The notes: generated by a model not told the origin, from the sequence alone. A stretch of 64,000 bases of DNA from Candidatus Omnitrophota bacterium (GCA_003154195.1 PMCS01000006.1:17676-81675); one strand, 5' to 3'. Positions 4,232-27,960 are shown, counted from the stretch's first letter. Translations and numbers: made by a program.

Positions 4232-4233
4232 CT

Positions 4234-4302
4234 AACCTAACACTGATTTTCGCTATAGCGAAAATCAGTGTTAGGTTAGGCGACCGAAAAATTCGTTTGA
4301 CA
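4234..4302. repeat. Perfect 20-bp inverted repeat (aacctaacactgattttcgc / gcgaaaatcagtgttaggtt) followed by a second hairpin ccgaaaaatt-cgtttgaca-aatttttcgg, immediately after the ahcY stop
   Basis: Seen directly. There is no U-run after the first stem, so it is not a canonical intrinsic terminator. The second hairpin is followed by a T-rich stretch. Confidence 0.6.
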
Positions 4303-4352: not shown

Positions 4353-5312
4353 ATGAAAATAAAACGTATCGGAGTCTTGACGAGGGATTGCGCCGGCGTA
4401 AATGCCTGTCTCAGGGCGATTGTCCGTACAGCGGCGTATCATAATATCGAAGTCATGGGCATCTTCCGGGGCTATGAAGGCCTGATGAATGACGATATGA
4501 AGATTTTTGACCGCCGTGCGGTTTCGGGAATAATAAATTTAGGCGGAACGATTTTGAAAACTTCCCGCGCGAAAAAATTCATGACCGGCCAAGGCCAGCG
4601 CCGCGCCGTAGCGGTCATCGAGCAGAATAACATCGATGGGCTTATCGTTGTGGGCGGCAACGGTTCGCTTGCCGGGGCGCATGTTTTAGCGGATAAATAT
4701 AATATTCCCGTCATCGGCGTTCCCGCGACCATCGACAACGATATCAATGGAGTGGAGATGTCGATTGGCGCGGATACGGCGATAAATGTTGCTCTCGATG
4801 CATTGGACAAAATCCGCGATACCGCGACATCGCTGGAGCGTATTTTTGTTGTCGAAGTTATGGGGCGCGATTGCGGGTTTATCGCTCTTCGGGCGGCATT
4901 GGCAGGGGGTTGCGAAGATGCTATAATCCCCGAGAAGAAATTCAGTATCGAAAAAATCGCCGAGGAGATTACCGAAGGCAATGTCCGCGGAAAAGTCAGC
5001 TGGATTGTGGTGGTTGCCGAAGGAAAAGCCAAAGCCGGCGTTATCGCCGGGCAAATTACCGGCCTTACGGGATTGGAAACCCGGGAGGTGGTCCTGGGCC
5101 ATATCCAGAGAGGCGGGATACCGACGGCGTTTGACCGGATTTTAGCGGCGCGTTACGGCAATTACGCCGTCGAATTATTAAAAAACGGGGAAAGCGGAAA
5201 GTGCGTTGCGATAAAAAATTATCAAATGTCGTCAGTTCCGCTGGCGCAAGCGATTAAGCATAAGGATATTCAAGCTGAAGATTACTATAAACTAATTAAG
5301 TTGTTGACTTGA
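4353..5312 (+). CDS. pfkA: ATP-dependent 6-phosphofructokinase
   Basis: MKIKRIGVLTRDCAGVNACLRAIV...VVGGNGSLAGAH...IDNDI motifs of PfkA. It is preceded by the short conserved leader ttttttacgaagtaaaaaaataaagtaatATG. Confidence 0.93.
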   Translation: MKIKRIGVLTRDCAGVNACLRAIVRTAAYHNIEVMGIFRGYEGLMNDDMKIFDRRAVSGIINLGGTILKTSRAKKFMTGQGQRRAVAVIEQNNIDGLIVVGGNGSLAGAHVLADKYNIPVIGVPATIDNDINGVEMSIGADTAINVALDALDKIRDTATSLERIFVVEVMGRDCGFIALRAALAGGCEDAIIPEKKFSIEKIAEEITEGNVRGKVSWIVVVAEGKAKAGVIAGQITGLTGLETREVVLGHIQRGGIPTAFDRILAARYGNYAVELLKNGESGKCVAIKNYQMSSVPLAQAIKHKDIQAEDYYKLIKLLT

Positions 5313-5413
5313 TTATTTTTTAAAATACCTTATACCCCCTCGCGTTGCTCGGGGGTAATTCGATTACAGCCTCACTGAGCGTGACATACACGCTCGTTCG
5401 GCTAAATCTCATT
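5312..5413. repeat. Mosaic repeat (CTCATTAA family, short form) abutting the aldolase-like start codon
   Basis: ccccctcgcgttgctcggggg hairpin; tacagcctcactgagcgtgacatacacgctc (7-bp stem); ggctaaatctcattATG. Same module order as 1434..1617 but with different, compensating stem sequences. Confidence 0.75.
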
Positions 5414-6823
5414 ATGATTTTTAAAAACGAAGAAGAAATTTTTCAGGAAGGTATCGTCGCTCAGGATAGCGGCAAGCTTGTGATCAAAGACCGGGATGTC
5501 TTTTGCGACCGGTTTATTGACGATATCGCCGACACTCTTGTTTTGAGCAATTCACGGGACACCAAAAGCGTATGCTATTGGATTGCTTACGAAGCGGCGT
5601 TGCAGTTTGGCATTTTTCCTTCTTCGATGCAGGGTCTTTATGAAGCGCGAGGCAGGAACGAGGTGGGCGGTTTTACCGTTCCGGCGATTAATTTAAGGAC
5701 GCTGGCCTATGATTTATCCCGGGCGGTATTCCGGTCGGCTAAAAAAATTAACGCTTCCGCCTTTATTTTTGAAATTACCCGGGGTGAAATTAATTATACC
5801 GAGCAGACGCCGGAGGAGTATTCAAGCGTTATCTTGCTTGCCGCGATTAAGGAAAATTACAGCGGCCCGGTATTCTTGCAAGGCGATCATTTTGAGATTG
5901 ACGCGGCAAATTATAACTACGATAAGAACCACGAAATCACCGCGATCAAGCAGCTGATTGAGGAAGCGGTCGGCGCCGCGTTCTATAATATCGATATTGA
6001 TTCCTCAACTTTAGTTGAGCTGGCAAAAGAAGATGTCGCCGCGCAACAGAGGCCTAATTATGAAACGTGCGCGTTCCTCACAAAGTTTATCCGCCAGATT
6101 CAGCCTTCCGGTATTTTCATTGCCGTGGGAGGCGAAATCGGCGAAATCGGCGGTAAGAATTCTACGCCGGAGGAATTAAACGTTTTTATGCAAGGTTATC
6201 TGGCTTGCCTTGAAGGGGTTAAGGGGATAACAAAATTGAGTATCCAAACCGGAGCGGTCAGCGGAGGAATCCCTTTACCGGACGGCGCCATCGCCAGAGC
6301 AAATATTGATTTCCAGATTCTGCGTGAGCTTTCGGAATTGGCCCGGCGCCAATACGGTTTATCGGGGTGCGTCCAGCAGGGCGCTTCTACCTTGCCCAAC
6401 GAGGCATTCCATAAATTTTCCGAAGTAGAATGTTCGGAGATACATTTAGCGACGCAGTTTCAAAATACCGTTTACGATTACCTGCCGATTTCCTTAAAAG
6501 AAAAAATTTATGATTGGCTGCACGATAACTATGCCCATGAACGCAAGGCCGGCCAGACCACCGACCAGTTTATCTATGTAACGCGTAAAAACGCATTCGC
6601 GCCGTTTAAGAAAGCTATTTTTTCTCTGCGCCGGGATTTAAAAAATCGAATATCAAAGGCGATGGAAGAGGAGTTTGATTTTTTGTTTGAGCAACTGCGG
6701 ATTAAAGATACGCGTACCATCGTAGAAAAATATATTAAACCCGTGGCCATTGAAAAAAATAAAGAAGATTTTACTTACGAAAAGGTTGGGCGAGATACGC
6801 CCGCCGAGCCGGAGTCCGAATAG
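5414..6823 (+). CDS. Class II aldolase-fold protein (fructose-bisphosphate aldolase class II / GatZ-KbaZ-like), divergent
   Basis: Start moved to the internal Met (track ORF begins 5345) because 5345-5413 is a repeat module. Motifs [24 protein letters not shown] and LATQFQN align to the class II FBA motifs DH, ELGxxGGEEDG, FHGGSG and TDTQ. Several Zn-ligand His positions appear substituted. Adjacent to pfkA. Confidence 0.55.
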
Positions 6824-10162: not shown

Positions 10163-10258
10163 ACCGCATTTTTCCCTGCCTGCCCTCGGCTTCGCCGCGA
10201 GGCGAGCCGGTAGGCAGGACGCAGCCGGAAAAATGCGTCAAACGCATTTTTCCGGCTT
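10163..10258. repeat. GC-rich hairpin module (family G): gcatttttccctgcctgccctcggcttcgccgcgaggcgagccggtaggcagg + ccggaaaaatgcgtcaaacgcatttttccgg
   Basis: Nested inverted repeats seen directly. Related copy at 11631..11834. Confidence 0.8.
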
Positions 10259-11070: not shown

Positions 11071-11192
11071 TCATCCGCGCAAGCGGATGATGATTATTTT
11101 TTGCGGAGCTTCAAATCCCCTCCGGGGATAATTCGGCTGCCATCTCACGCTACGCGCTATCGCGCTTGCGTTCGATGAAGCCTCATTAATAA
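11071..11192. repeat. Mosaic repeat (CTCATTAA family) abutting the mreD start
   Basis: tcatccgcgcaagcggatga hairpin (covaries with cattcgcgtaagcgaatg at 1436); ttttttgcggagc; cccctccggggataattcggctgccatctcacg; ctacgcgctatcgcgcttgcg; gatgaagcctcattaataaATG. Confidence 0.85.
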
Positions 11193-11630
11193 ATGAAAGG
11201 AAAAAAACTTAATATAATTGGCATTCTACTCTTTTTGTTATTTTTAGATGCTTTTCGGCCATGGGGATATTTATTGCAAGTTGAGTTTGTTTTTTTAGGA
11301 ATTATTTGCCTTGCCCTGTATTGCCCGTTTAATTTTTCCTTTATCAGCGCAATCGCCCTTGGGTATTTGCGGGACTGTCTTTGCGGTACTTTCTTTTTGA
11401 CTTCCCTTGAATTTCCCGCGCTGGTATTTTTTATTGCCTACTCCAAAGATGTTTTTACTCACCGGTACGCGAAATTTTTTATAGTTACGGCGGCGCTTGG
11501 CGCGCATATAATCGTAAACAATCTATTCATCGCCGGTTCGGTTTTTCCTTTAGTGTCTTTGTTTGTTTTGCTCTTTTTTTTGCATTCCCTATTCTTTTTT
11601 TTCGTTGTCGAGCGTATCGCTTTCGCTTAA
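11193..11630 (+). CDS. mreD: Rod shape-determining protein MreD (polytopic membrane protein)
   Basis: 145 aa, five predicted TM helices, in the mreBCD position. The assignment rests on genomic context. Confidence 0.7.
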   Translation: MKGKKLNIIGILLFLLFLDAFRPWGYLLQVEFVFLGIICLALYCPFNFSFISAIALGYLRDCLCGTFFLTSLEFPALVFFIAYSKDVFTHRYAKFFIVTAALGAHIIVNNLFIAGSVFPLVSLFVLLFFLHSLFFFFVVERIAFA

Positions 11631-11834
11631 CCGGGAAAATGCGGTTACGCATTTTTCCGGTCTGGCCTGCCTGCCGGCTCGCCTCGCGGCGTCCGCCTCG
11701 GCGAGCCTTCGGCGAGACGGGAAGCCGAGGGCAGGCAGGGAAAAAAATGCCGGCAGGCAAGCGTCAAAAGCCCGCGGCCTCCCTCGGCTTCGCCGAGAGG
11801 CGAGCGCCGCGAGGCGGGCATTTTTCCGGTTAAT
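11631..11834. repeat. GC-rich hairpin module cluster (family G) filling the mreD-mrdA gap
   Basis: ccgggaaaatgcggttacgcatttttccgg; cctgcctgccggctcgcctcgcggcg...gccgagggcaggcagg; ...cctccctcggcttcgccgagaggcgagc...cgggcatttttccgg. The Arg/Pro-rich six-frame ORFs here are artefacts of the repeat. Confidence 0.85.
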
Positions 11835-13526
11835 ATGAATTACTATTTTATCCGCCGCCTGTATATATTCGGCCTGACGATTCTGGTTATCGCGCTTTTT
11901 TATTCCCAGATTATCCGGGGGAATTATTATCTGGAGCGGGCGAAAAACAATTACGTGCGGGTTATCCCCCTGCGTTCAAAAAGAGGCACGATTTATGACC
12001 GCAACGGCCTGCCTCTCGCTTACGATAACGCGTCGTTTAACATTGCGGTAATACCCTGCCAGATAAAAAATAAAAAAGATTCATTATTCCGGGAACTCGC
12101 CGCTGCGCTGGGATCAGACATCAATATTATTTTACGTAATTACAGCCGCGAGCTGATTAATTATTTCAGCCCGATCGATGTAGCAATCAACATTGATAAG
12201 TCAAAAGCTTTCCAGATCCAGGAAAAATTCAAAGATGTGTTGATCGACCCGCAGCCGCGGCGTTACTATCCTTATCCCCGCGAATTCTCTCATATTTTAG
12301 GATATGTGAAGCGGCAGGATAGTTTTTATGAGAGTTTTAAGAAATATGGTTACGCGCCTTCCGAATACGCGGGGGTTACCGGCATCGAGCAGTATTACGA
12401 TAGTTATTTAAAAGGCGAGGATGGCGGTAATTTAATCGAAATAAATGCCCGGGGCCAGGTAGTAGGGTTTTTAGGCGAACAAAAAGCCCATAAGGGGCAG
12501 GATATCTATCTGACGATCGACGCGCGTTGGCAAAAAATAGTTTTTGATGAACTGGGAGGGCGCATCGGCGCGGTCATTATTATGGATTCCCAGAGTGGTG
12601 AGATCATCGCCATGGTTTCATCCCCCGCGTTCGATCCCAATCAATTTTTAAAAGGTAAGGGCTTAGCGGAAATGCGCGACGAGCGCCACCCGCTGCTTAA
12701 CCGGGCGATTCAGTCCGCTTGCCAGATGGGCTCTACGATAAAACCGATAATCGCTCTCGCCGCGCTGCAAGAAAAAAAAATAACTCCCGCATCCACTTTT
12801 ATTTGCAACGGCACAATGAATCTCGGCCGCGCGTCTTTCCATTGCCTCCATACTCACGGCGCCCAGGATTTATACCAGGGAATAGCGCACTCCTGTAATA
12901 TTTATTTTTATAACGTCGCTTTACGGCTCGGCCCCGATAATATAACAAAGTGGGCAAAACGATTCCGGCTGGACGCAGTTACGGATATCGATTTGCCTTA
13001 CGAGGGGAAAGGTTTTATGCCGACCGTAGAATGGAAGGAGAGAGTTTTAAAAAGTAAATGGTTTGACGGCGATACCTGCAATTTAGCCATCGGCCAGGGT
13101 TCGAGCCAGGTTACCCCTCTGGAGAATTTGTTGGCGATGAATGTGTTCGCGACCTCAGGATATTTAGTGAGGCCCCATCTTTTTAAAAAAGTGGAGGATA
13201 CCGATTCCGGTTTTGGCGAAAGGAATTACCTCGGCGCGGATATCGCCAATATTGATATTGTCAAGACGGGCTTACGCGATGTCGTCGAGGGGGAGGGCGG
13301 CACGGCGCATATTCTAAAAGAATTAAATCTGAAGATCGCCGGCAAAACCGGAACCGCTCAGGTAGGGCCGGGAAAGTCTCCTCACGGATGGTTTCTCGGC
13401 TTTTTTCCCTACGATAATCCCCGATATACTTTTTGCGTATTTCTTGAGCACGGCCAATCAAGCTATATCGCCGTAAAGGCGTTCAAGGCGATTTTGAAAA
13501 AAGCAAGGGAAGGCGGCATTTTATGA
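11835..13526 (+). CDS. mrdA: Penicillin-binding protein 2 (elongasome transpeptidase)
   Basis: N-terminal TM helix, dimerisation domain, and transpeptidase motifs STIKP, SCN and KTGTA. Lies between mreD and rodA. Confidence 0.9.
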   Translation: MNYYFIRRLYIFGLTILVIALFYSQIIRGNYYLERAKNNYVRVIPLRSKRGTIYDRNGLPLAYDNASFNIAVIPCQIKNKKDSLFRELAAALGSDINIILRNYSRELINYFSPIDVAINIDKSKAFQIQEKFKDVLIDPQPRRYYPYPREFSHILGYVKRQDSFYESFKKYGYAPSEYAGVTGIEQYYDSYLKGEDGGNLIEINARGQVVGFLGEQKAHKGQDIYLTIDARWQKIVFDELGGRIGAVIIMDSQSGEIIAMVSSPAFDPNQFLKGKGLAEMRDERHPLLNRAIQSACQMGSTIKPIIALAALQEKKITPASTFICNGTMNLGRASFHCLHTHGAQDLYQGIAHSCNIYFYNVALRLGPDNITKWAKRFRLDAVTDIDLPYEGKGFMPTVEWKERVLKSKWFDGDTCNLAIGQGSSQVTPLENLLAMNVFATSGYLVRPHLFKKVEDTDSGFGERNYLGADIANIDIVKTGLRDVVEGEGGTAHILKELNLKIAGKTGTAQVGPGKSPHGWFLGFFPYDNPRYTFCVFLEHGQSSYIAVKAFKAILKKAREGGIL

Positions 13527-14617
13527 CGGCTCATCATCCTTTACGATTCAGGCTTACTACCGCCAAAACAATAATTTTTTGTTTAGCGATACTTAATGCC
13601 CTGAGCCTGGCCGCTATTTACAGCAGCCTGCACGAAGGGGGAAGTTTTACCGCCCAGGGCCTTTTTTATAAAGAAATTGTCTGGATGATCATTTCCTGGT
13701 TATTTTTGTTATTTTTTTCCTTCGTCAACTACCGTATTTATTATGACCTCGCGTATTTTTTTTATATTTTTAATATAATCCTTCTTTTCATCGTTGGACG
13801 TTTTGGGAAAACCGCGATGGGTGCCACGCGCTGGATCAATATCGCCGGATTTAATTTCCAGCCTTCGGAGGTAGCGAAAATAGCGATAATCTTTCTGTTG
13901 GCGCGTTTTTTCTCTTTTCAGGGCAAGCGCGGTTTTTTGAAAGATTTCCTGGTTCCCCTGGTTTTAGTCGGATTCAGCAGCCTGATCATCCTTAAGCAGC
14001 CCGACCTGGGCACTGCCCTGATTTTAATCTTTCTTTTCCTTTTAACCGGGTTCGCCTCACAGGTAAAAAAAAGATATTTTGTGTTTTTACTTATCGCCGG
14101 CATAGCGGCCGCGCCGTTTTTATTTAACCATCTTAAGGATTATCAAAAAAAACGCCTTATTGTTTTCGTTAACCCCAATGCCGACCCCCTGGGCGCCGGT
14201 TACACGATAATCCAGTCGAAAATCGCCGTCGGTTCCGGACGGTTTTTCGGCAAAGGTTTTTTATCGGGAACGCAGAATCAATTTAACTTTTTACCGGAGC
14301 GCCATACCGATTTTATTTTTACCGTAATCGGCGAAGAGGGAGGGCTTCTCGGTTCGCTCTTCCTTATTTTAATATACTGGCTGATCATCAATACGATTTT
14401 AAAGGAAACCGACCGCCTGAAAGACCCTTTTGCGCAGTATCTGTGTTTCGCGATTGCGACCTTGTTCTTTCTCCATTTGTTTATCAATGTCGGCATGACT
14501 CTGGGGATACTTCCGGTTGTCGGCGTGCCTTTTCTTTTTATGAGTTACGGCGGGACCCACCTGATGGCGAGTTTTATTCTGGCGGGGATATTTCTTAATA
14601 TCTGTCACTCCGAATAA
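13523..14617 (+). CDS. rodA: Peptidoglycan glycosyltransferase RodA (SEDS family)
   Basis: ATGA overlap with the mrdA stop. Ten TM helices with typical SEDS segments GATRWINIAGFNFQPSE and AVGSGRFFGKGFLSGTQ. Confidence 0.9.
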   Translation: MTAHHPLRFRLTTAKTIIFCLAILNALSLAAIYSSLHEGGSFTAQGLFYKEIVWMIISWLFLLFFSFVNYRIYYDLAYFFYIFNIILLFIVGRFGKTAMGATRWINIAGFNFQPSEVAKIAIIFLLARFFSFQGKRGFLKDFLVPLVLVGFSSLIILKQPDLGTALILIFLFLLTGFASQVKKRYFVFLLIAGIAAAPFLFNHLKDYQKKRLIVFVNPNADPLGAGYTIIQSKIAVGSGRFFGKGFLSGTQNQFNFLPERHTDFIFTVIGEEGGLLGSLFLILIYWLIINTILKETDRLKDPFAQYLCFAIATLFFLHLFINVGMTLGILPVVGVPFLFMSYGGTHLMASFILAGIFLNICHSE

Positions 14618-14619
14618 AG

Positions 14620-14692
14620 AAAATTCCGTGCCGGAATTTTCTTTATGAAGGAAAAATACAGTCTGATGAAACGGCTGTATTTTTCTCGAAAT
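14620..14692 (+). terminator. Rho-independent terminator(s) after rodA (agaaaattccg-tgc-cggaattttct + ttat; second hairpin aaaatacagtc...ctgtattttt)
   Basis: Stem-loops followed by T-runs, seen directly. Confidence 0.7.
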
Positions 14693-14878
14693 CGAAGATA
14701 TTATTAGCTAAAATACTTCTTTTGCCAAATTTCCCATGTTATACGGACTCCGTATAATATGATATTACGAAGCAAAGACGGATAAATTAAATAAAAAAGT
14801 GCTATTTTTTGTATGAAAACGGTTTATTTTTGTTAAAATAATCATGGGTAACACAGAAAACACCGAATCCGTATATTA

Positions 14879-15120
14879 ATTGTTGCGCGAAATCCAAATA
14901 ATATAGAACCAGTATTTATTTCGCGCAACGCGGAGCTCAGGCTTCGCCGTTCCGCGCTTTGTCGCGCCTAAATTCAAAAATCGTACGCGCAACAAATCGC
15001 TACAGCGGAATACGCAAAATATAAGCAGGTAAATGCGCCACCTGTATTATCAAAGGAACGCGCACTTACCTGCCACCTACACTTTGCGTATTCCGCTGAG
15101 CTCCGCGTTATGCATAAATT
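14879..15120. repeat. Element A copy 1 (basic form, about 240 bp): 12-bp terminal hairpin gttgcgcgaaat...atttcgcgcaac, large inverted repeat cgcggagctcagg...cctgagctccgcg enclosing nested palindromes
   Basis: Internal palindrome cagcggaatacgcaaaatataagcaggtaa / ttacctgccacctacactttgcgtattccgctg. Two longer copies with a nested insertion are at 16612..17016 and 21062..21510. Confidence 0.9.
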
Positions 15121-15165
15121 AATACAAAAAATCAATCGAATCGAAAATAAAAAATAAAAAAATGT

Positions 15166-15190
15166 GTAGGGACAGGCCTAAGGCCTGTCC
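15166..15190. repeat. REP-like hairpin GTAG-GGACAGGCC-TAA-GGCCTGTCC, 22 nt upstream of the RAYT start
   Basis: 5' GTAG tetranucleotide followed by a perfect 9-bp palindrome. An exact inverted copy lies inside the RAYT ORF at 15496..15520. Confidence 0.8.
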
Positions 15191-15212
15191 AATACCAAAT
15201 ACCAAATAAAAA

Positions 15213-15788
15213 ATGACAAAAATATTAACACGCAAAGCGAATATACGTTTATCGGGATACGATTATACCCGATCAAATCATTATTACGTCACCGCCTGCA
15301 CCGAAAATAAACGCGAATGGTTCGGGGAAATTAAAAATAATGAAATGATATTGAATTCATACGGTAAAATCTGTTTAGAGCACCTGCAAAATCTGCCCGT
15401 TTATTATAAAAATATCAAAATTGATACGTTTGTAATTATGCCCAACCACTTTCATGCGATAATCATTATGCAAAATAATCAAATAAATCATAGCGGACAG
15501 GCCTTAGGCCTGTCCCTACATATATCGCAAAATAAATCATTGTCGAAAATTATCGGCGATTATAAATCGTTTTCTTCACGGGAAATTAATAAAATAACGG
15601 ACAATGGCCATAAATTCAAATGGCAACGCTCGTTTTATGACCACATAATCAGAAACGAAAAATCTCTGCGGAAAATCCGTGAATACATTACCAATAATCC
15701 CGTTGCCTGGGCGGAAGACGAGGAAAATATCAAGTGCATAACCATCAAATCCAGCCGACCTGAACCGTCCTGCTTCGCCCTTCGATAG
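15213..15788 (+). CDS. REP-associated tyrosine transposase (RAYT; IS200/IS605-like Y1 HuH transposase)
   Basis: HuH motif MPNHFHAII and catalytic Tyr context KWQRSFYDHIIRNE, about 67 aa apart. 191 aa, longer than IS200 TnpA and typical of RAYTs. Flanked by GTAG-type REP hairpins and element A copies. Confidence 0.8.
   Translation: MTKILTRKANIRLSGYDYTRSNHYYVTACTENKREWFGEIKNNEMILNSYGKICLEHLQNLPVYYKNIKIDTFVIMPNHFHAIIIMQNNQINHSGQALGLSLHISQNKSLSKIIGDYKSFSSREINKITDNGHKFKWQRSFYDHIIRNEKSLRKIREYITNNPVAWAEDEENIKCITIKSSRPEPSCFALR
15496..15520. repeat. Inverted copy of the GTAG REP hairpin (GGACAGGCCTTAGGCCTGTCC-CTAC), in frame inside the RAYT ORF
   Basis: Exact reverse complement of 15165..15190. Encodes SGQALGLSL in the RAYT reading frame. 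Confidence 0.8.
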
Positions 15789-15789
15789 G

Positions 15790-15850
15790 AAGTGGATAGC
15801 TTTGACGGGCTTCGCAGAGACAGGCCGGCACGAACGGTTCAGGCGGCTGA
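15790..15850. repeat. Inverted repeat gccgacctgaaccgtcc ... ggcacgaacggttcaggcggc just after the RAYT stop
   Basis: 10-bp arms cctgaaccgt / acggttcagg, seen directly. Confidence 0.6.
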
Positions 15851-15862
15851 TTATATTGTTAG

Positions 15863-16546
15863 ATGAAAATAAATATGAAAAATACATCACGAATAATCAT
15901 CTTTCTTCTTGTAGCGTCATCTGTTTTGCCATGTCGTGCAAAACAGATAAATGATCTTCGCCAAGCAGCCATTAATTATGTTGTTGCCGAACATGGACCG
16001 CAAGCAATGGGCATGAAGGAAATTTCATCAGGACAACAGAAAGGCCTAATCGTAACCGTCGAGAAACCACAGTCAAATGACAAGGCCATGTATTGGGTGA
16101 CATTTGAAGAGTCAACGCCCGTATACGCTGGAAAACCACGACCGCAAGAGAAACAGAATCTGCTTCATGCGCTTAGAATTATCGGTCCCGAATTCAGAGG
16201 CGTGTATAACGAGCGCTTGTCGGACGAAGAATTCCAGGCATTATCCGCACTGAAATCACCAAGGGATATCTTGGTTCGGGAGCCGATCGCGCAGGCGATC
16301 ATAAAAGAAAAGGTGTTACCGGGGATTGCCAGAGAATTGCAGGAAGGTCAGTTTTTCGCCAGAGAAACAGAAGCCCACTATTTTATCTTTGACTTTAGCA
16401 CAATGTCGAATAGGGGTCTAACTGGGGTCACTGTATTAGTTGATGAAGATGGGACCGTTATAACGAAATATGAACATATTGCACCAGATGATCTAGCAGC
16501 TAACAAGCCGAATGAAAAAACTACGGGAACAAGCACTGAAAGCTGA
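15863..16546 (+). CDS. Hypothetical secreted protein (signal peptide; possible lipoprotein)
   Basis: N-terminal MKINMKNTSRIIIFLLVASSVLPC signal. Nothing in the sequence indicates a function. Lies in the low-GC island. Confidence 0.55.
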   Translation: MKINMKNTSRIIIFLLVASSVLPCRAKQINDLRQAAINYVVAEHGPQAMGMKEISSGQQKGLIVTVEKPQSNDKAMYWVTFEESTPVYAGKPRPQEKQNLLHALRIIGPEFRGVYNERLSDEEFQALSALKSPRDILVREPIAQAIIKEKVLPGIARELQEGQFFARETEAHYFIFDFSTMSNRGLTGVTVLVDEDGTVITKYEHIAPDDLAANKPNEKTTGTSTES

Positions 16547-16555
16547 AAATAAATT

Positions 16556-17016
16556 TAATATCTAACAATTTCATCCAGCGGACTTTGCCTGCGGCAAAAC
16601 CGCTGATTATTATGTTGCGCGAAATCCAAATAATATGGAATCAGTATTTATTAATGAGACTTCGCCGAATGAACGCGCGCAGCGCGTTCGGTGAGGCGGT
16701 AGTGAAACTTATCCCGCCGTATTCGGCGGGATGTAGTTGAACTATCCCCGCAGGGGGTAGTCGAATTAGCGCAACGCGGAGCTCAGGCTTCGCCGTTCCG
16801 CGCTTTGTCGCGCCTAAATTCAAAAATCGTACGCGCACGATACACCTTAATGTAAGTATTCGGTAAGTCCCGCTGAACCGTAGAGGTGAAGCGGGGACAA
16901 ATCGCTCCAGCAGAATACGCAAAATGTAAGCAGGTAAATGCGCCGCCTGTATCATTCAAAGGAACGCGCACTTACCTGCCACCTACACTTTGCGTATTCC
17001 GCTGAGCTCCGCGTTA
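16556..17016. repeat. Terminator cassette T1 (16556-16611) plus element A copy 2 with a nested reverse-oriented CTCATTAA-family insertion
   Basis: T1 is atctaacaatttcatccagcggactttgcctgcggcaaaaccgctgattatt. A2 begins gttgcgcgaaatccaaataatatggaatcagtatttatt. An inserted segment ttaatgagacttcgccg...gggatagttcaactacatcccgccg follows, then the cgcggagctcagg...ctgagctccgcgtta body. The antisense ORF 16641..16955 is repeat-derived. Confidence 0.9.
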
Positions 17017-17049
17017 GATGTAAAATATAAATAAAACGGGGCGCAAAAA

Positions 17050-18105
17050 ATGGAAAATGTAAAAAAGGTCATAATCGCATTGTTTGGGTATATATACTTC
17101 CTGCAAGGAATGTGCATAATTATCATGCATACCGCTATCTGGACGGTCAGACCGGATTTTCAATATGCATTGAGCACAGGTACGGGCATAGCATTATTGT
17201 GCACGGCAATCGGGCTGTTCAGGTTAAAAGAATTGGCGAGGAAAATCACGATTATTTTAAATATTTTCTTCCTGATTAACACGTGGCTATCCATTTTTTC
17301 GATGTATAAGATAGTGTCAACGGGAAATGGCTGGCTATGGGCTATATGGCATAATATTTGTTTTATTTTGCCGATTTATTTTTTCACTCGACCCGGGATA
17401 AAAGAACAATTCAGAATAAATCCCGCATCAACGCAATTCCCTGGCCCCGCTCCCGCGGCTGATCCTTTAGACACAAATGAAGGCCAAAAACCAATTTCAG
17501 CATGGTTATCTTTAGTATTCCTTATATTACCGTTTGCAGTGGTTATACCTTATTGGTTATTGTCCCCTTCCCCGAAGATCAATTTTTTCAGTGTGCTATT
17601 CATTATTTTCATTTTTACATCATCCATAATCGCCGCTATATCTTTCATAATGATAGCGTTTATCCGCAAAGAAAAGCCGCTACGATTCTTTCGATTGGTA
17701 CTATGGGCAAATATCATTGTTATCGGCTCAATAGTCGCCAACCTATACCTTGCAGGCCAAAAAACAAAAGAAATAGAAGAGCGAGTAACCCGTGAGGTGG
17801 AAAACCGTGATCCAGTTATAATCGCTTTCCGCAAACAGAAAATCGTCCCTCTCATGGTTACCTATTTCGACCTTGCGTGCTTTGAAGCTGAAGATAAATA
17901 CCCTCTTGATAATCAGGCGATAGAAAGAAAGAAAAAACTCGCGTTAAATGCCATTATAAACCATATCGACCGTAACGATTATACCGAATATATATTTAGT
18001 CGCAGCCACCCGGAAAGTATTTTTTATATCAAAACAACTTATAATGGATATAGAAAATTAAAACATAATCTCTATGTAAAATTTATAAACCTAGTTAACG
18101 AATAA
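17050..18105 (+). CDS. Hypothetical polytopic membrane protein with about 120-aa cytoplasmic C-terminal domain
   Basis: 351 aa with multiple hydrophobic segments. No family recognised from the sequence. Low-GC island gene. Confidence 0.6.
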   Translation: MENVKKVIIALFGYIYFLQGMCIIIMHTAIWTVRPDFQYALSTGTGIALLCTAIGLFRLKELARKITIILNIFFLINTWLSIFSMYKIVSTGNGWLWAIWHNICFILPIYFFTRPGIKEQFRINPASTQFPGPAPAADPLDTNEGQKPISAWLSLVFLILPFAVVIPYWLLSPSPKINFFSVLFIIFIFTSSIIAAISFIMIAFIRKEKPLRFFRLVLWANIIVIGSIVANLYLAGQKTKEIEERVTREVENRDPVIIAFRKQKIVPLMVTYFDLACFEAEDKYPLDNQAIERKKKLALNAIINHIDRNDYTEYIFSRSHPESIFYIKTTYNGYRKLKHNLYVKFINLVNE

Positions 18106-18202
18106 GCCGGACCAGGAACTTAAAATTAAACAAAAAGAAATCCAGGGTTTATCACCAAAAAAACTACGGGGTCAAACACTGAAAGCTGAAAAGAAAATAA
18201 AA

Positions 18203-18260
18203 CATCTAACAAACTAATCCAGCGAGATCTCGCCAAGGGCGGACCGCTGATTTTTGTGTT
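18203..18260 (+). terminator. Terminator cassette T2 (atctaacaaactaatccagcgagatctcgccaagggcggaccgctgatttttgtgtt)
   Basis: Stem followed by a T-run. A second copy is at 22069..22135. Confidence 0.55.
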
Positions 18261-18285
18261 ATAATAAAAAGAATAGAGAAAAATT

Positions 18286-19047
18286 ATGAAAAACATTTTT
18301 TGGGCTGTAATTCTCATCGGTGTTTTCTTTGTAACATCTCCCGTCATGGCGAATCAGGACGTTTATAACAGTTTACAATCTACTTTAATTTTAGTGGGTG
18401 AATATACCGGTAATAAAAATTACGATACCGATGCTCATGCTTGGCGTCTTGATTACAAAGTGATAACCATTCTGCAGAATAGCAACAATTCGAACCCAAT
18501 CTATTTTATAACACATTTCTTCAGTATGGATTGTAAACCAGGTCGCATTATTACGGTAAGAGGAATAGTGGATTGGAATAAGGAGAACGCGGAAAAAACC
18601 GAGATAAACAGCCGCTGGATTCTGTTTTTGGAAAATAAATACAATATTAAATACAATAAATACGCCGATTATCCTGGATCGTATCACAGTTTAAGAATCC
18701 CCGCAAGTCAGAATAACATGGATAAAATAAAAAAAGAAATGGAGATTAAAAAAAATCTATATTCCAAATCCTGCGATCAGCTGTCAAAACTCTGGAAAGA
18801 CAATTATAAAAAATTAGACAAAAGCTGTTCAAACGACAGCGATTGCATGAAAAGACCGTCTGCTGATTGCGGAAGAGACTGCATCAACAATATAAACGCA
18901 AACAATGCCGCGATCGAGGAAATGTGTTGGAAACTAGATGGTGCTCGTATAGACAAAGGCTGCATCCCCCAGGGTGAGTGTTCCCCTTATATAACTGAAT
19001 GTAAATGCGTAGACAAACAATGTTCCGCGATAGAGAAAAAGCCTTAG
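18286..19047 (+). CDS. Hypothetical secreted protein with Cys-rich C-terminal domain
   Basis: Signal peptide MKNIFWAVILIGVFFVTSPVMA. The C-terminal 90 aa contain 13 Cys (CSNDSDC, CGRDC, CIPQGEC, CKCVDKQC). AT-rich codon usage. Confidence 0.6.
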   Translation: MKNIFWAVILIGVFFVTSPVMANQDVYNSLQSTLILVGEYTGNKNYDTDAHAWRLDYKVITILQNSNNSNPIYFITHFFSMDCKPGRIITVRGIVDWNKENAEKTEINSRWILFLENKYNIKYNKYADYPGSYHSLRIPASQNNMDKIKKEMEIKKNLYSKSCDQLSKLWKDNYKKLDKSCSNDSDCMKRPSADCGRDCINNINANNAAIEEMCWKLDGARIDKGCIPQGECSPYITECKCVDKQCSAIEKKP

Positions 19048-19161
19048 ACGTAAGCGAGCTAAACGAAAGACGGTTATAACAACGCGCTGCAGGCGACAAA
19101 ACCTGCGGTTTTGCGCCTGAGCTTGGATGTTATGGTTAAAAATATTAGGAGGAATTTATAT

Positions 19162-19800
19162 ATGGCTAGTTTGGAAAAATCGGGATTAGAAATTGTCGCC
19201 AAATTAATGTCAATATCTGCTAGGACCGCTCCAAAGTCCGGCGGTATTGACCATGTACATATAATGGTTGCGTCTTCCAGTAAACAAAAATCTATCGCTG
19301 GCATGATGAAAAAAGTTGCAGAACAAATTTGTCAAAAATTACCAAATAGCAAGCTTGGAAATGCAATAAAAGAAGATTGGGAAAGTGATGCCAGTAGTAT
19401 CATAGAATCCGGCCTTCTGGTGCTAATAGGAGTTGAAGGTAGAAAAGCAATAGGTCTGAATTGTGGAGGATGTGGATTTTCTACCTGTTCAGAAATGTTA
19501 AAACATCGTCGAATTTCCTTAACAGAACATAGTCTTATTGGTCCTTATTGTATTTTTAAAGTAATGGATTTAAGTATTGCGTCAGCATCAGCAGTTAAAA
19601 CTGCAATGGAACACAATGTTGATAACCGTATGATGTATAAAGCAGGAGTTGCGGCTTTAAAATTAGGTATTTTAAATCCATGTGATTTAATAATGGGCAT
19701 ACCGCTATCAGCGACAGGAAAAAATATTTATTTTGATAGAACAGATAAACTTGATGCATGGAAGGTAATCAAATCGAATAAAAATAATAAAGAACCATAA
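19162..19800 (+). CDS. Hypothetical protein with a CGGCGFSTC Cys motif (possible metal/Fe-S binding)
   Basis: Start set at the ATG 9 nt after SD aggagg (track ORF begins at TTG 19111). Motif NCGGCGFSTC plus distal C residues. Resemblance to DUF2148-type ferredoxin-domain proteins is a recollection. Confidence 0.5.
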   Translation: MASLEKSGLEIVAKLMSISARTAPKSGGIDHVHIMVASSSKQKSIAGMMKKVAEQICQKLPNSKLGNAIKEDWESDASSIIESGLLVLIGVEGRKAIGLNCGGCGFSTCSEMLKHRRISLTEHSLIGPYCIFKVMDLSIASASAVKTAMEHNVDNRMMYKAGVAALKLGILNPCDLIMGIPLSATGKNIYFDRTDKLDAWKVIKSNKNNKEP

Positions 19801-19851
19801 CAATTTCATCCAGCGGATTTTGCCTGCGGCAAAACCGCTGATTATTGTGTT
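19796..19851 (+). terminator. Terminator cassette T1 copy 2 (ataacaatttcatccagcggattttgcctgcggcaaaaccgctgattatt)
   Basis: 13-bp stem cagcggttttgcc with a one-base bulge, then a T-rich tail. Near-identical to 16556..16611. Confidence 0.6.
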
Positions 19852-20202
19852 ATGCAAATATTAATAATTATACTGATAATTGTCGGGCTAATTGCAATTG
19901 GCAATATTTATAGTTTCATAAAATATTTAAATGCCGCAACGGAGCATGAAAAACAGGAAAACTATAAAGAAGCTTGTTTTTCATATTCTCAGCTTTTATT
20001 GCACTCTTTGTTCTCGAAAATCCACGGAACATATTACAAAATGAAAATTCAATCGTTGTGGAATACCAATGGTCCTTTTGATTATGAATATAAATACAAC
20101 AATATCATACAAAACAGAGAAGATACCGGTGACAACGAAATAGAATTAAGAGATACCATACAATACATTGGTAAAATTGTTGACGAAAATAAAAATGCAT
20201 AA
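19852..20202 (+). CDS. Hypothetical small membrane-anchored protein
   Basis: N-terminal TM helix MQILIIILIIVGLIAIGNIY. No SD, and the start overlaps the T1 cassette, so the start is uncertain. Confidence 0.4.
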   Translation: MQILIIILIIVGLIAIGNIYSFIKYLNAATEHEKQENYKEACFSYSQLLLHSLFSKIHGTYYKMKIQSLWNTNGPFDYEYKYNNIIQNREDTGDNEIELRDTIQYIGKIVDENKNA

Positions 20203-20270
20203 CAACTCCTTTCAGCGTACGTCAGGGCTGCGCCCTGCCACCGCTGAAGCCGATGTTATAGGAGGGAAAA

Positions 20271-20912
20271 ATGCGGAAATTATTTTTAGCGATTATCTTT
20301 TCTTTATTTTGGCCGGGAGCAACTGGTCCTTATATTCTTTATGCGCAGTCAACAGAGCTTTCCCAGGATAAAAACGGAAATCTTGAACTTCACGTGGTAA
20401 CAGATGAAAACGTTGATATCAAGGTGTTTATTGATGATAAGCTTGCGGTGGACGAACAGTTTCACAAACAGCGAGAAAAATATTCTATAGGAATTGCTCC
20501 ACATAAGGTATTTTGTTTTAATCTTCAACCGGGCAAACATACGCTGTGGGCTGAGGCCAACCCGGGAAAACAGAGTTTTGCGGGTGAGTTTGAAATAAGG
20601 GATAAAGGAGTTGTGATAACACAAAGCTTCGGCCTATTCAATGTTGGCGCCGAGACCGTATTCGACGACTTAATAAAGAACGGCTATATTGACGTTAATG
20701 GTATAATCCGGGAAAAGTTTAAACAGATTGCAGAGTACTCCCAAATGAAGTTAAGCCAAGACTATCGCGACTGGGAAAAACAAAAGATTTATAACATTTT
20801 GCGACAGAGCGATAAACGATGGCTTTCGCTTAGTTACGTTGATCCTCAACGGATAAAGCAAAAGGAACAATTTACTTTGGAAGCGTACGATTGGCAGATT
20901 ATGTATCAATGA
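20271..20912 (+). CDS. Hypothetical secreted protein
   Basis: SD ggaggg 6 nt upstream. Signal peptide MRKLFLAIIFSLFWPGATGPYILYA. No recognisable domain. Confidence 0.6.
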   Translation: MRKLFLAIIFSLFWPGATGPYILYAQSTELSQDKNGNLELHVVTDENVDIKVFIDDKLAVDEQFHKQREKYSIGIAPHKVFCFNLQPGKHTLWAEANPGKQSFAGEFEIRDKGVVITQSFGLFNVGAETVFDDLIKNGYIDVNGIIREKFKQIAEYSQMKLSQDYRDWEKQKIYNILRQSDKRWLSLSYVDPQRIKQKEQFTLEAYDWQIMYQ

Positions 20913-20994
20913 TTGCCTTCGCCGGATAACTCGACTGTGATTTTATTAAAAAATAAAGAAGAACACCCAAGAAAACAAAATTTGGGAAAAAAAC

Positions 20995-21510
20995 CCTATA
21001 ACAAATCAATCAACCGGACTTTTTCGCGGCTTTTTAAAGCCGCTCAAAAGCCGGTTATTTCTATGTTGCGCGAAATCCAAATAATATAGAATCAGTATTT
21101 ATTAATGAGACTTCGTCGAACGAACGTGCGAAGTGCATTCAGTGAGGCGGTAGTGAAACTTATCCTGCCGTATTCGGCGGGATGTAGTTGAACTATCCCC
21201 GCAGGGGGTAGTCGAATTAGCGCAACGCGGAGCTCAGGCTTCGCCGTTCCGCGCTTTGTCGCGCCTAAATTAAAAAATCGTACGCGCACGCGAAGCACCT
21301 TAATGTAAGCATGCAGCGAGTCCCGCCGTAGGCGGGGACAAATCGCTTCCGCCAAAAACAAGATACGGCGGACAGGCCATCGGAAATCGCGTATAAGTAC
21401 GCGGATAAACCTGCCACCTATATCATTTAATAGTAAGCAGGCTTATCCGCTACCTTGATAGCGCAATGGAGTTTATCCTGAGCGAAGTCGAAGGGCTGAG
21501 CTCCGCGGTA
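20995..21510. repeat. Hairpin module (ccggactttttcgcggctttttaaagccgctcaaaagccgg) plus element A copy 3 (longest, about 450 bp)
   Basis: Begins gttgcgcgaaatccaaataatatagaatcagtatttatt + ttaatgagacttcgtcg..., with the same body as copy 2 plus extra internal sequence, and ends ctgagctccgcggta. The antisense ORF 21092..21361 is repeat-derived. Confidence 0.9.
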
Positions 21511-21598
21511 GAACTATATGAAAAATAAAGTCGTAAATTTTACCGCAAAAACACAGCAAATATGTTATAATTTAGCCAAGAACATAGGAGGAATAAAA

Positions 21599-21778
21599 AT
21601 GAGCCCAATAAAATTAGAAGCAAAAAAATTGATCAGCCGTTTACCGGACAGCGCGACATGGGACGACATACTTTACGAATTCCATGTTAAAAGGAAAATC
21701 GATATTGCCCTCGATGCTGTAAAGAGTGGCAAAATTATTTCTCACGAACAAGCTAAAAAGCGCCTGTTATCAAAATGA
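21599..21778 (+). CDS. Type II antitoxin (putative addiction-module antitoxin partner of the ParE/RelE toxin)
   Basis: SD aggagg. 59 aa (MSPIKLEAKKLISRLPDSATWDDILYEFHVKRKIDIALDAVKSGKIISHEQAKKRLLSK). ATGA overlap with the downstream toxin. Confidence 0.65.
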   Translation: MSPIKLEAKKLISRLPDSATWDDILYEFHVKRKIDIALDAVKSGKIISHEQAKKRLLSK

Positions 21779-22068
21779 CAATACTCTGGTCAGAGCCATC
21801 CATTTCGGATTTAAAAAATATTAAAGACTATATCGCCAAAGACTCCCCTTATTATGCCGCCATCTTTATTGAAAAAATAATTACCGCCGTCGAAAAACTT
21901 GCCACCCTTCCACTCGTCGGACGCATCGTTACTGAATGTAACGACAAACACATAAGAGAAGTAATATATCAACACTACCGAATAATTTACAAAATTAATC
22001 ATAAAGCCCTCATCATCTTAACCGTGGTGCATGGCGGCCGTGATTTGTCCGGCTGGGCTAAAAAATAA
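21775..22068 (+). CDS. ParE/RelE-family type II toxin
   Basis: 97 aa with the typical ParE-like pattern ...YYAAIFIEKIITAVEKLATLPLVGRIV...REVIYQHYRIIYKI...ILTVVHGGRDL. Confidence 0.75.
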   Translation: MTILWSEPSISDLKNIKDYIAKDSPYYAAIFIEKIITAVEKLATLPLVGRIVTECNDKHIREVIYQHYRIIYKINHKALIILTVVHGGRDLSGWAKK

Positions 22069-22135
22069 TCAAATTGCTAACCGATCAATCCAGCGAGATC
22101 TCGCCAAAGGCGGACTGCTGATTTATGCGTTGCGC
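22069..22135 (+). terminator. Terminator cassette T2 copy 2 followed by a truncated element-A start (gttgcgcgaaat)
   Basis: aatccagcgagatctcgccaaaggcggactgctgatttatgcgttgcgcgaaat. Confidence 0.55.
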
Positions 22136-22248
22136 GAAATATAATTACTAAAGGTGATCATGTAATGGAGAAATCTCGGCTTCTACTAAAAGAAGTATTT
22201 TCTATCCGCGAAGCGGGCGGCATTTATTTTTTACGGAGTAAAAAATAA

Positions 22249-23871
22249 ATGAATTTTGCTCAGTTCCAAAAACCCCAGCGCTATATCGGCAATGAGTGGA
22301 ATGTCGTCAAAAAAGATCATGCCGGTAGGATAAAAATATGCCTGTCTTACCCTGATACCTACGAAATCGGGATGAGCAATCTAGGTTTACGCATCATCTA
22401 TTCCCTGCTTAACGATTTCGACGATGTTGTTTGCGAGCGGGTTTTCCTGCCCGACGATGATTTTGCCGCGTTTTTCCGAAATTCCCAAGCCCCGCTTTTT
22501 TCCCTGGAGACAAAAACTGCGTTAAAAGATTTCGAGGTTATCGGTTTTAATCTAAGCTGCGAACTTAATCTCACTAATTTTTTAGATATTCTTTCTTTGG
22601 GAGGCATTCCGCTATTGGCCGCCGAGCGCGAGAAAGTGATTATTGTGGGGGGAGGCATTGCCAATCCTGAACCGGTAGCGGATTTTGTCGATGTGTTTTT
22701 TATGGGAGAGTTTGAAGATTCTGCCGCCGCTTTTGTCGAGGTTTTGCGCAAAGTCAAAGATAAAGAGGAACGCCTTAAGGCGCTGGCGCAAATCGACGGG
22801 TTCTATGTCCCGAAATTTTACGCTGCCGGTTTTAACGGCGCTAAATATTCTTTTGAAAAAAAATACGCTGCTGCGAATTTTCCCATCCGCCGCATGTTTG
22901 TAAAAGATTTCAATAACGCGCCTCATCCGGATAAATGGCTTGTTCCTTATGGGCAGATTGTCCATGACCGCGTCCAGGTCGAGATCGCCCGCGGATGCCC
23001 CAACGCCTGCGTTTTTTGCCAGGCACGCGCGGTTTACCGCCCTTATCGCGAGCGGAGCATCCCGGCGATCATGGATATTTTAAGAAAAAGTTACGAGAAT
23101 AGCGGTTATGAGGAATTTACCCTGCTGGCGCTCTCCGTATCGAATTATTCCCATATTGAGGAACTGATCGATGAAAGCATCGATTATTTTAAAGATAAGA
23201 AGGTAGGACTATCGCTGCCATCTTTACGCGTGGATGATATTCTGGGCCGCCTGCATTCCAAGCTTTCAAGCATAAAAAATAGTTCCTTAACGGTTGCGGT
23301 AGAGGCGGCCAGGGATTGTCTGCGCGATAAATTAAATAAGAAAATAGATTTAGCGAAGCTTTTTGAGGCAGGGCAAATCCTGCGCGCGTTAAAAATAAGA
23401 AAGGCCAAGCTTTATTTCATGTTCGGATTTTCCGATGAAACCGATGAAGATTTAGCCGCGATCGGTAAGTTTTTGCACGAATTGAGCTATAAGACGCGGT
23501 TGAATTTAAACGTGAGTATTAATGTGTTTGTGCCTAAGCCTTTTTCCCTGTGGGAGGGTGAAAAAATGGATAGTGAGGAAACCCTGCTCAATAAACGGCA
23601 AATTATCCTTAACCACGCTCCGGCGGTAAGATATATCGATATTTCGATATCGTCGATAAAGAAAAGTATTTTTGAAGGTATCGTGAGCCGTGCCGATCGA
23701 AGTTTTTCCCGTGTTTTGCTTAACGCCTACAGGAAAGGAGCGCGCCGCGATTCCAGTTCCGAGCGCTTTAACTGGGATATCTGGGAAGCGGCGATGAAGG
23801 AGGAAGGATTCGACTGGCATTTTTGTTTAGAGGCGAAAACGGAGAATCATCCGTGGAATATTATTGAATAA
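22249..23871 (+). CDS. Radical SAM protein with N-terminal B12-binding-like domain (TIGR03960-type uncharacterised rSAM)
   Basis: CxxxCxxC motif in VEIARGCPNACVFCQARAVY. 540 aa. Preceded by the conserved short leader ttttttacggagtaaaaaataaATG. Confidence 0.85.
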   Translation: MNFAQFQKPQRYIGNEWNVVKKDHAGRIKICLSYPDTYEIGMSNLGLRIIYSLLNDFDDVVCERVFLPDDDFAAFFRNSQAPLFSLETKTALKDFEVIGFNLSCELNLTNFLDILSLGGIPLLAAEREKVIIVGGGIANPEPVADFVDVFFMGEFEDSAAAFVEVLRKVKDKEERLKALAQIDGFYVPKFYAAGFNGAKYSFEKKYAAANFPIRRMFVKDFNNAPHPDKWLVPYGQIVHDRVQVEIARGCPNACVFCQARAVYRPYRERSIPAIMDILRKSYENSGYEEFTLLALSVSNYSHIEELIDESIDYFKDKKVGLSLPSLRVDDILGRLHSKLSSIKNSSLTVAVEAARDCLRDKLNKKIDLAKLFEAGQILRALKIRKAKLYFMFGFSDETDEDLAAIGKFLHELSYKTRLNLNVSINVFVPKPFSLWEGEKMDSEETLLNKRQIILNHAPAVRYIDISISSIKKSIFEGIVSRADRSFSRVLLNAYRKGARRDSSSERFNWDIWEAAMKEEGFDWHFCLEAKTENHPWNIIE

Positions 23872-27699: not shown

Positions 27700-27960
27700 A
27701 TCCAAAACCGTAGGCGCGCTTAGAGCGCGACTTCAGGTTTTGGGTAATGAGGCTTCGCCGAAATCAAGCGCGAAGCGCGCAGGTTGAGGCGGTAGCCGAA
27801 CTTCCCGCCTGCGCTTCACTCGGCGGGATCACGCTTCCTTGATATAACCATATTAGGAAGGCGGTGAACCTCGAGCGAGGAGCGAAGCGACGAGTCGAGG
27901 GATAATGAGCCTTAATTTTTTTCCGCCTATGGCGGGAAAAAAATCCAGGTCTTATTAATA
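27700..27960. repeat. Mosaic repeat (reverse-oriented modules of the CTCATTAA family) in the polyamine-operon upstream region
   Basis: ccgtaggcgcgcttagagcgcgac; taatgaggcttcgccg; the reverse complement of 27780-27870 matches the ggttcaccgcc..cccgccgag..gcaggcgggaa module at 34220 and 51940; ttttttccgcctatggcgggaaaaaaa hairpin. Confidence 0.8.

Follow-up and report, generated by a model that had tools for sequence, protein, structure and literature searches.

Between rodA and a gene for a B12-binding radical-SAM protein, the genome of Candidatus Omnitrophota bacterium GCA_003154195.1 carries an island of short genes and repeated palindromes, and the question raised by this locus is what kind of element brought them together. 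The stretch analyzed (PMCS01000006.1:17676-81675; 64,000 nt, hereafter the window, with positions counted from its first letter) contains the island at 14618-22248. A first-pass annotation, made from the sequence alone, had described an AT-rich accessory island in which repeats T1 and T2 served as reusable terminators, a palindromic element A provided the scaffold, and the genes might form a surface- or host-interaction module. Our analysis indicates that the island is very probably an integrase-less chromosomal integron cassette array with its attI retained, of the type termed CALIN (cluster of attC sites lacking integron-integrase; Cury et al. 2016, PMC4889954). It consists of 11 cassettes, all on the + strand, downstream of an attI-like region.

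Hairpin repeats as attC sites

The repeats T1 (16560 and 19795), T2 (18204 and 22075) and element A (copies A1, 14883-15107; A2, 16615-17013; A3, 21066-21507) were found where the first-pass annotation had located them and are real repeats, and T1 and T2 are integron attC recombination sites. Each comprises a YnTAAC box, an unpaired spacer of 5-6 nt, an imperfect hairpin, a second spacer of 5-6 nt and GTT. On the 5' arm of the stem a C and an A (which read G and T on the bottom strand) have no partner, for example in ATC[C]AGCGG[A]CTTTGCC paired with GGCAAA-CCGCT-GAT, where brackets mark the extra-helical bases. This layout, extra-helical bases included, we take to be that of attC-aadA7. Alignment column 22 and columns 28-30 are unpaired in the attC sites. 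Four further sites of the same class were returned by a fold-filtered scan (15736-15864, 19074-19135, 20197-20261 and 20996-21071); these had been missed when each gene or gene pair was described as followed by either T1 or T2. The canonical attC sites accordingly number eight, with one more inside each of the three element A copies, all on the + strand and spaced 0.4-1.6 kb apart, and every open reading frame (ORF) or ORF pair of the island ends in an attC.

A covariance model (R1) was built from seven of the window sites, among which compensatory changes were present at 10 of 17 stem pairs, and was run with filters off over both strands of the 64 kb. The eighth site (15736-15864), absent from the training set, was recovered at E 5.7e-5; outside the island, nothing was found on either strand at E<0.01, and only three chance-level matches were returned (E 2.9-5.6). 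TAAC...GTT is invariant, with AAC paired to GTT in all seven aligned window sites and in 51-52 of 52 sites across genomes. In an alignment of these 52 sites, which was fitted to the model and hence biased in the model's favour, 93% of cells were paired (slid controls, 23-44%) and double-change cells numbered 122, compared with 32 in shuffles, none of 500 shuffles being as high. No U-tract follows the hairpins, spacer and GTT being found instead, and no attC was among the + strand hits of a terminator scan, on which the terminator reading of T1 and T2 was rejected; with attC boxes, extra-helical bases and covariation, "reusable terminator cassettes" is not a description that the repeats bear out. 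Rfam at gathering thresholds gave one tRNA only in the whole window, and at E<=1 the island gave only chance microRNA-like matches on its long hairpins.

Sites of the same type are found beside integron integrases in other genomes. A strict attC pattern matched 27 loci in GTDB species genomes, six of them in Omnitrophota, where about 0.4 were estimated to be expected by chance; others belong to lineages that host integrons. Same-strand arrays detected with R1 comprised 11 sites in locus L040, 6 each in L020 and L032, and 3 in L028 (JBDRAN010000059.1). In L028, a divergent ORF approximately 800 nt from the first attC scored 413 bits on the TIGR02249 integron integrase model (cutoff 265), and its homologues are abundant and are named "integron integrase" of Omnitrophota by NCBI. 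R1 matches also lie beside intI in six further loci, always on the strand opposite intI.

The 44 nt immediately upstream of two of the window's attCs (16515-16558 and 18158-18201) are 86% identical, coding for the end of a 227-aa protein in the first instance and non-coding in the second; they may be a trace of the formation or exchange of cassettes or attCs.

Insertion site, attI-like region and missing integrase

GC content is 39.5% in the island and 46.1% in the remaining window (Mann-Whitney p=2.6e-5, 500-nt windows), the minimum for other 7.6-kb stretches of the window is 43.2%, and GC at third codon positions is 0.23-0.43 in island ORFs and 0.48-0.58 in flanking genes. On the left the island is flanked by rodA (13523..14617, +; PF01098 in the gene calls of contigs with an identical protein), whose named homologues are all RodA of Omnitrophica/Omnitrophota, and on the right by the TIGR03960 B12-binding radical-SAM (rSAM) gene (22249..23871, +). 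In three related Omnitrophota contigs (RodA 64-66% identical) the order FBA-IlvD-MreB-MreC-MreD-PBP2-RodA-rSAM-DUF2344-AdoMetDC is intact, with rodA either running 4 nt into the rSAM gene or ending 43-55 nt short of it, which leaves an empty site. Because rodA directly adjoins the rSAM gene in these relatives, the island is an insertion. It is accessory, with a significant compositional shift, an empty site in relatives and variable content. On this point the first-pass annotation was borne out by two of the checks it had proposed: the whole neighbourhood is kept in three contigs that have no island between rodA and the rSAM gene, and the shift in composition, whose lack of significance had been named beforehand as a refutation, is significant (p=2.6e-5).

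The attI-like region lies at 14740..14884 (+), with an upstream repeat GGACTCCGTATAATATGATATTACG...ACGGATAA, the core CCGAATCCGTATATTAATTG/TT (here and below, a slash before the final bases of a core or boundary marks the crossover point) and position 14882 as the crossover G. Each of its motifs has a counterpart in the region from the intI start codon to the first cassette of seven integrons (L028, L046/47, L049, L052-54, L055, L056 and L058), in which an upstream repeat GGAYTCCRTAT..TGATATTA..ACGGAAT is followed by the core GGAYTCCGTATATTAATTG/TT; the core common to the window and those integrons ends ...TCCGTATATTAATTG/TT. From this homology, 14740-14884 is predicted to function as attI. 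At the other end of the array, the sequence after the last attC (22130-22248) opens with TTGCGCGAAAT, the same 11 nt as the start of every element A copy, and could be what is left of a further element A or else the right half of the original attI.

Contigs with identical RodA differ in content after element A1. L006 (RodA 100% identical) is the same as the window through ...GCTGAGCTCCGCG (CTCCGCG) and different from /TT onward, its second cassette consisting of a 195-aa ORF followed by an Unstab_antitox gene. L063 follows the window as far as the end of A3 (its 3' boundary) and from there on has a BrnT-like toxin-antitoxin cassette, a further attC and a flank with valS. It is at cassette boundaries that L006 and L063 depart from the window, and these boundaries behave like crossover points. 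In L063 (WOOD18 scaffold_1035; 4540-5800) the cassettes of window 16963-21505 are followed by the BrnT/BrnA-like cassette with its own TTGACA promoter, an attC and a tandem 47-nt duplication, and then valS; either the contig is a chimera scaffolded through element A, or the population has a second attC locus. L014, from metagenome-assembled genome GCA_003154645.1, is without 16873-21045, through either recombination between A2 and A3 or assembly collapse. All nine rodA contigs have A1 first, and most end inside A1; the repeats therefore break assemblies. Three other apparent variants were rejected: the extra 44 nt of L010, given no weight because that contig contains a scaffolding run of N; the divergent tail of L004, likewise given none, as it diverges inside an ORF and looks chimeric; and the contexts in L064 and L067 with a 116-aa before a 253-aa protein, which are merely truncated gene calls.

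A CALIN is defined by at least two clustered attC sites on the same strand with no intI nearby, and the island has eight canonical and three inner attCs. An attI, recognized by sequence homology, is present as in a complete integron, and an intI is absent; the CALIN-type assignment, in the terminology of IntegronFinder, is made because attI and cassettes are present and neither an integrase nor a remnant of one was found in the 64 kb. The content is typical of chromosomal integrons: small ORFs on one strand, some start or stop codons within R boxes, a toxin-antitoxin cassette, gene-less cassettes and a near-orphan protein. By analogy with known integron biology, each of the 11 units would have inserted as a circular cassette, the IntI tyrosine recombinase joining the folded bottom strand of an attC with attI or another attC between G and TT. 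Successive insertions would stack promoterless ORFs in a single orientation, transcription would start from a promoter in the attI region, and the toxin-antitoxin cassette, with its own promoter, would stabilize the array. Loss or separation of intI would then leave the array static, unless an IntI encoded elsewhere acts in trans. Reannotation of the island as a mobile-gene platform accounts for its composition, one-strand gene order, repeats and strain-to-strain variation.

Several points weigh against this reading. The integrase search, which reached 14.9 kb beyond the array on the upstream side and 42 kb on the downstream side, was negative: tblastn with seven IntIs of the clade gave noise only in the 64 kb (best E 0.27). 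tblastn of the window with IntI1 gave nothing at E<1e-3, Pfam identified housekeeping genes only and no recombinase among 10 integrase-size candidate ORFs, and a short ORF beside attI (MGNLAKEVF and stop, 14738 leftwards) was rejected as an intI remnant, being unlike IntI N-termini. The textbook consensus RYYYAAC and GTTRRRY is followed only partly, the outer R-box positions varying around the invariant TAAC and GTT. The candidate cassette promoter (TTCCCA-16-TATAAT, 14731..14758, +; 10 of 12 consensus matches) comes from a consensus scan that flagged 28 sites where 22.6 were expected from shuffles, and its assignment is weak. Recombination activity of the attC sites is predicted, and some of the population variants may be assembly artefacts of element A (a collapse in L014; L063 is a scaffold).

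In a variant of the CALIN reading the array is one half of a still-active integron, its integrase encoded elsewhere in the genome, after rearrangement or in a second integron, and acting in trans. We give this somewhat less than an even chance. It is favoured by the switch of second cassette exactly at G/TT between contigs with 100% identical RodA, by the joining in L063 of the same cassettes to another toxin-antitoxin cassette, attC and valS flank, which hints at a second attC locus, by the intact attI with a cassette adjoining it, and by the survey finding that about half of CALINs are in replicons encoding IntI (PMC4889954). Set against these are the lack of an integrase in 64 kb, the possibility that the variants stem from homologous recombination between A copies or from mis-assembly, and the position of A1, first in all nine rodA contigs, with no fresh insertion at attI seen.

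Cassettes, cargo and element A

Cassette coordinates run from the leading T of one TT to the G that closes the cassette, all on the + strand. Cassettes 1, 4 and 10 are the gene-less element A copies, described below. Cassette 2 (15108..15858; 129-nt attC 15736-15864) encodes a REP-associated tyrosine transposase (RAYT; REP, repetitive extragenic palindrome) at 15213-15788, which matches PF01797 at 1.9e-8 and scores 71.6 bits on NF047646, under the cutoff of 80, and may be impaired. Its REP hairpins (15162-15190 and 15495-15523) are the sole two copies in the 64 kb: a GTAG+hairpin REP, GTAGGGACAGGCCTAAGGCCTGTCC, lies upstream of the ORF, and an inverted copy lies in-frame inside it, between the HUH motif (HFHAII) and the C-terminal Y1_Tnp match.

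Cassette 3 (15859..16614; attC 16560-16620, T1) encodes a 227-aa protein with a signal-peptide-like N-terminus (15863-16546) and no family match in Pfam, NCBIfam or PADLOC. Cassette 5 (17014..18258; attC 18204-18264, T2) encodes a 351-aa polytopic membrane protein (17050-18105), and cassette 6 (18259..19129; attC 19074-19135) a 253-aa protein (18286-19047) with a signal-peptide-like N-terminus and the Cys-rich C-terminus noted earlier, although 10 of its 12 Cys, and not 13, were counted in the last 90 residues. No homologues of the 253-aa protein were found by word-indexed search, and among 1.84 billion representatives it had nine weak matches (E 1.8e-14 to 6e-4), eight of them confined to the Cys-rich C-terminal part; from these searches it appears to be a near-orphan. 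Cassette 7 (19130..19849; attC 19795-19855, T1) encodes a DUF2148 ferredoxin-domain protein (19132-19800) whose ATG (19132) falls within the R' box. This is the protein previously characterized by a CGGCG motif and said to have no recognizable domain; it matches PF09918 at 9.6e-30.

Cassette 8 (19850..20255; attC 20197-20261) encodes a 116-aa protein with one N-terminal hydrophobic segment (19852-20202), its stop codon inside R'', and cassette 9 (20256..21065; attC 20996-21071) a 213-aa protein with a signal-peptide-like N-terminus (20271-20912). AlphaFold2 single-sequence models of the 213-aa and 227-aa proteins had a predicted confidence (pLDDT) of about 40 and were unusable. Cassette 11 (21508..22129; attC 22075-22135, T2) carries a toxin-antitoxin pair, with the antitoxin from 21518 or 21599 to 21778 and a ParE/RelE toxin at 21775-22068 (PF05016 at 6.3e-18; TIGR02385). 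From the earlier gene list, the RAYT and the ParE/RelE pair were retained; that all six remaining proteins are without domains was not, one having DUF2148.

The cargo consists of independent cassettes, mostly orphans. Each ORF or ORF pair is a separate cassette with its own attC, no family in Pfam, NCBIfam or PADLOC links the cargo ORFs, and PADLOC found no defence system beyond one weak match, on the RAYT; nothing supports a shared surface function or the proposed surface- or host-interaction module. It would be a mistake to handle the six hypothetical proteins as though they formed an operon-like unit. It is highly improbable that the locus is a generic horizontal island of intrinsic terminators, a scaffold resembling miniature inverted-repeat transposable elements and a co-functional set of secreted and membrane proteins. 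Low GC, the empty site in relatives and the signal-peptide-like or transmembrane N-termini of several ORFs fit such an island, but its + strand hairpins lack U-tracts and were not scored as terminators, they have attC-specific features and adjoin integron integrases in other genomes, and every ORF has its own attC with no shared family or defence-system match.

Element A is a gene-less cassette family multiplied within the array. The island had been described as scaffolded and partitioned by it; the element is instead itself a cassette, G/TT-bounded like the others. The three copies reported earlier were confirmed as cassettes 1 (A1, 14883..15107; inner attC 14987-15113), 4 (A2, 16615..17013) and 10 (A3, 21066..21507; R' box degenerate, GGTAGAA), with A3 corrected from 20995-21510, which took in the attC at 20996-21071. 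All copies start at the G/TT of attI or of the preceding attC; A1 and A2 end ...CTGAGCTCCGCG/TT, A3 ends at a degenerate ...CCGCG/GT, and the L052 copy ends at A/TT. Related copies are present in L028 (as first cassette, with a second copy), L052-54 (first), L046/47 (second) and L045, the one locus found by a metagenome scan with the 3' end of the element. Of the eight attI-bearing loci examined, three have element A directly after attI and one has it in second place. The window contains no copies outside the array, and nhmmer with the 5' module found none in the other Omnitrophota arrays examined.

The 3' half of A1 (14987-15113) is a canonical attC, GCGCAAC-AAATCG-CT[A]CAGCGG...CCGCTGAG-CTCCGC-GTTATGC, with spacers and one extra base, although it scores no higher than 16.5 bits on R1 (E 0.46); in L028-type copies the two extra bases are both present. 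In the 5' half, a second R'' box is followed by a perfect complement of the attC 3' arm (R', spacer and L'). Three helices are formed: an outer stem P1 (AACGCRGAGYTSAG with CTSARCTCYGCGTT), a hairpin P2, in which the inner R'' box and its spacer pair with another, complementary segment, and a hairpin P0 between the outer R'' box and the opening 12 nt of the cassette (GTTNGCGC..AT). Folding of bottom-strand DNA gave the same fold in 6/6 A copies, with P1 around two hairpins (a three-way junction) and then P0; for the A1 bottom strand the folding energy is -72 kcal/mol (z = -11). Five lineages were aligned by hand, a small sample in which the register of P2 is unreliable; in this alignment 70 of 72 cells of P0 were paired and 9 of 12 positions covaried, and 81 of 84 cells of P1 were paired with three covarying positions.

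No conserved ORF was found in element A; - strand ORFs of 53, 104 and 89 aa differ between the copies and belong to no family, the 104-aa ORF of A2 being absent from A1, and the copies in L028 and L046 do not have the same reading frames. The consensus scan picked out no promoter-like site within the element, and no Rfam family matched it, including no group II intron at E<=1. An origin from a group II intron or from IS1111-attC was rejected on the lack of an Rfam match, the lack of an ORF and ends at G/TT. L028-type copies have a conserved motif, GGRGAATAMTCATAGATGAATGG, in one hairpin loop (L028 ~1640-1700, L046 ~860-900, L052 ~5730-5760, all - strand), which is absent from the window's copies and lies outside any conserved reading frame.

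A2 and A3 carry a 113-nt insert B in the P0 loop (16653-16765 and 21104-21216). The nesting seen in these copies by the first-pass annotation is real; what is nested is not a reverse-oriented copy of element A but a member of a separate dispersed family of intergenic repeats, found on both strands, made up of small hairpin modules and ending ..GAAGYCTCATTAATAA. Further copies lie at about 11125-11195(-), 27745-27810(+), 34377-34437(-), 44318-44406(-), 52039-52131(-) and 59429-59498(+). Since insert B is common to A2 and A3, its insertion preceded duplication of that cassette.

Element A is the only part of the island with some novelty, and no description of its self-complementary architecture was found in the literature searched. 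As a tentative and rather unlikely proposal, it may be a previously undescribed integron component that carries, as its 5' half, its own attC in inverted and top-deleted form, acting as a self-masking or switchable recombination site or as a selfish cassette. Single-stranded element A would prefer the three-way junction and hairpin over the recombinogenic attC fold, and self-masking might adjust how readily the element or its neighbours are excised; alternatively, it would be a cargo-free selfish cassette re-inserting at attI unusually often. If the branched fold really modulates attC folding, element A would add a cis-acting layer of control on cassette mobility. That T1, T2 and element A are REP- or BIME-type (bacterial interspersed mosaic element) sequences spread by the island's RAYT is barely credible and already contradicted by the REP distribution, for despite the presence of a RAYT with GTAG-hairpin REPs beside and inside it, and of dispersed hairpin repeats in the genome (the insert B family), the RAYT-associated REP GGACAGGCCTNAGGCCTGTCC bears no relation to T1/T2 or to A and has only two copies in 64 kb, both in the RAYT cassette, T1/T2-type sites and element A occur in integrons with no RAYT in the stretches examined, and T1/T2 and A are confined to the array within the window.

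Two structures elsewhere in the window are unrelated to the integron: a perfect hairpin with a 22-bp stem after the AdoHcyase gene (4226-4281), and long G+C-rich inverted repeats bracketing mreC-mreD (10169-10257 and 11631-11745).

Comparison with known systems

Integrase-bearing Omnitrophota integrons such as L028 carry attCs of the array's type (79 bits on R1) and share its attI core and repeats as well as the element A family. In those integrons intI is divergent from attI, whereas the window has the rodA terminator region in intI's place.

With the sedentary chromosomal integrons, exemplified by the Vibrio cholerae superintegron and its repeats (VCR), the array shares mutually similar attCs (the T1 and T2 subtypes), a toxin-antitoxin cassette, gene-less cassettes and orphan ORFs. 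It differs in being small, in having no integrase, in its Omnitrophota host, and in not being fixed in the wider lineage, as the empty site indicates. GC skew of the + strand is positive throughout the window, and if this marks the leading strand, the attC bottom strands are probably on the leading-strand template, the arrangement reported for 25 of 30 sedentary chromosomal integrons (PMC5371416).

Gene-less cassettes can be sources of promoters or of regulatory RNAs (Blanco et al. 2024, PMC11014356; review PMC8876359). Like them, element A has no conserved ORF, has a 3' attC, recurs in arrays and can be first; unlike them, it has no flagged promoter, and its non-attC half is complementary to its own attC arms. 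Elements that target attCs (IS1111-attC and group IIC-attC introns) insert in or beside an attC and interrupt arrays, as element A does, but element A has no transposase or intron ORF and ends at G/TT, not inside the attC.

Like CALINs (PMC4889954), the array has cassettes of unknown function, none of which carries a resistance gene. Its 11 cassettes exceed 93% of the CALINs surveyed (PMC4889954), and it differs from them in keeping at its head an attI-like region homologous to that of integrase-bearing relatives. The proposed origins of CALINs are loss of intI or separation by rearrangement (PMC4889954), and an attI retained without intI, together with an empty site in relatives, bears on the choice between integrase loss and relocation of the platform.

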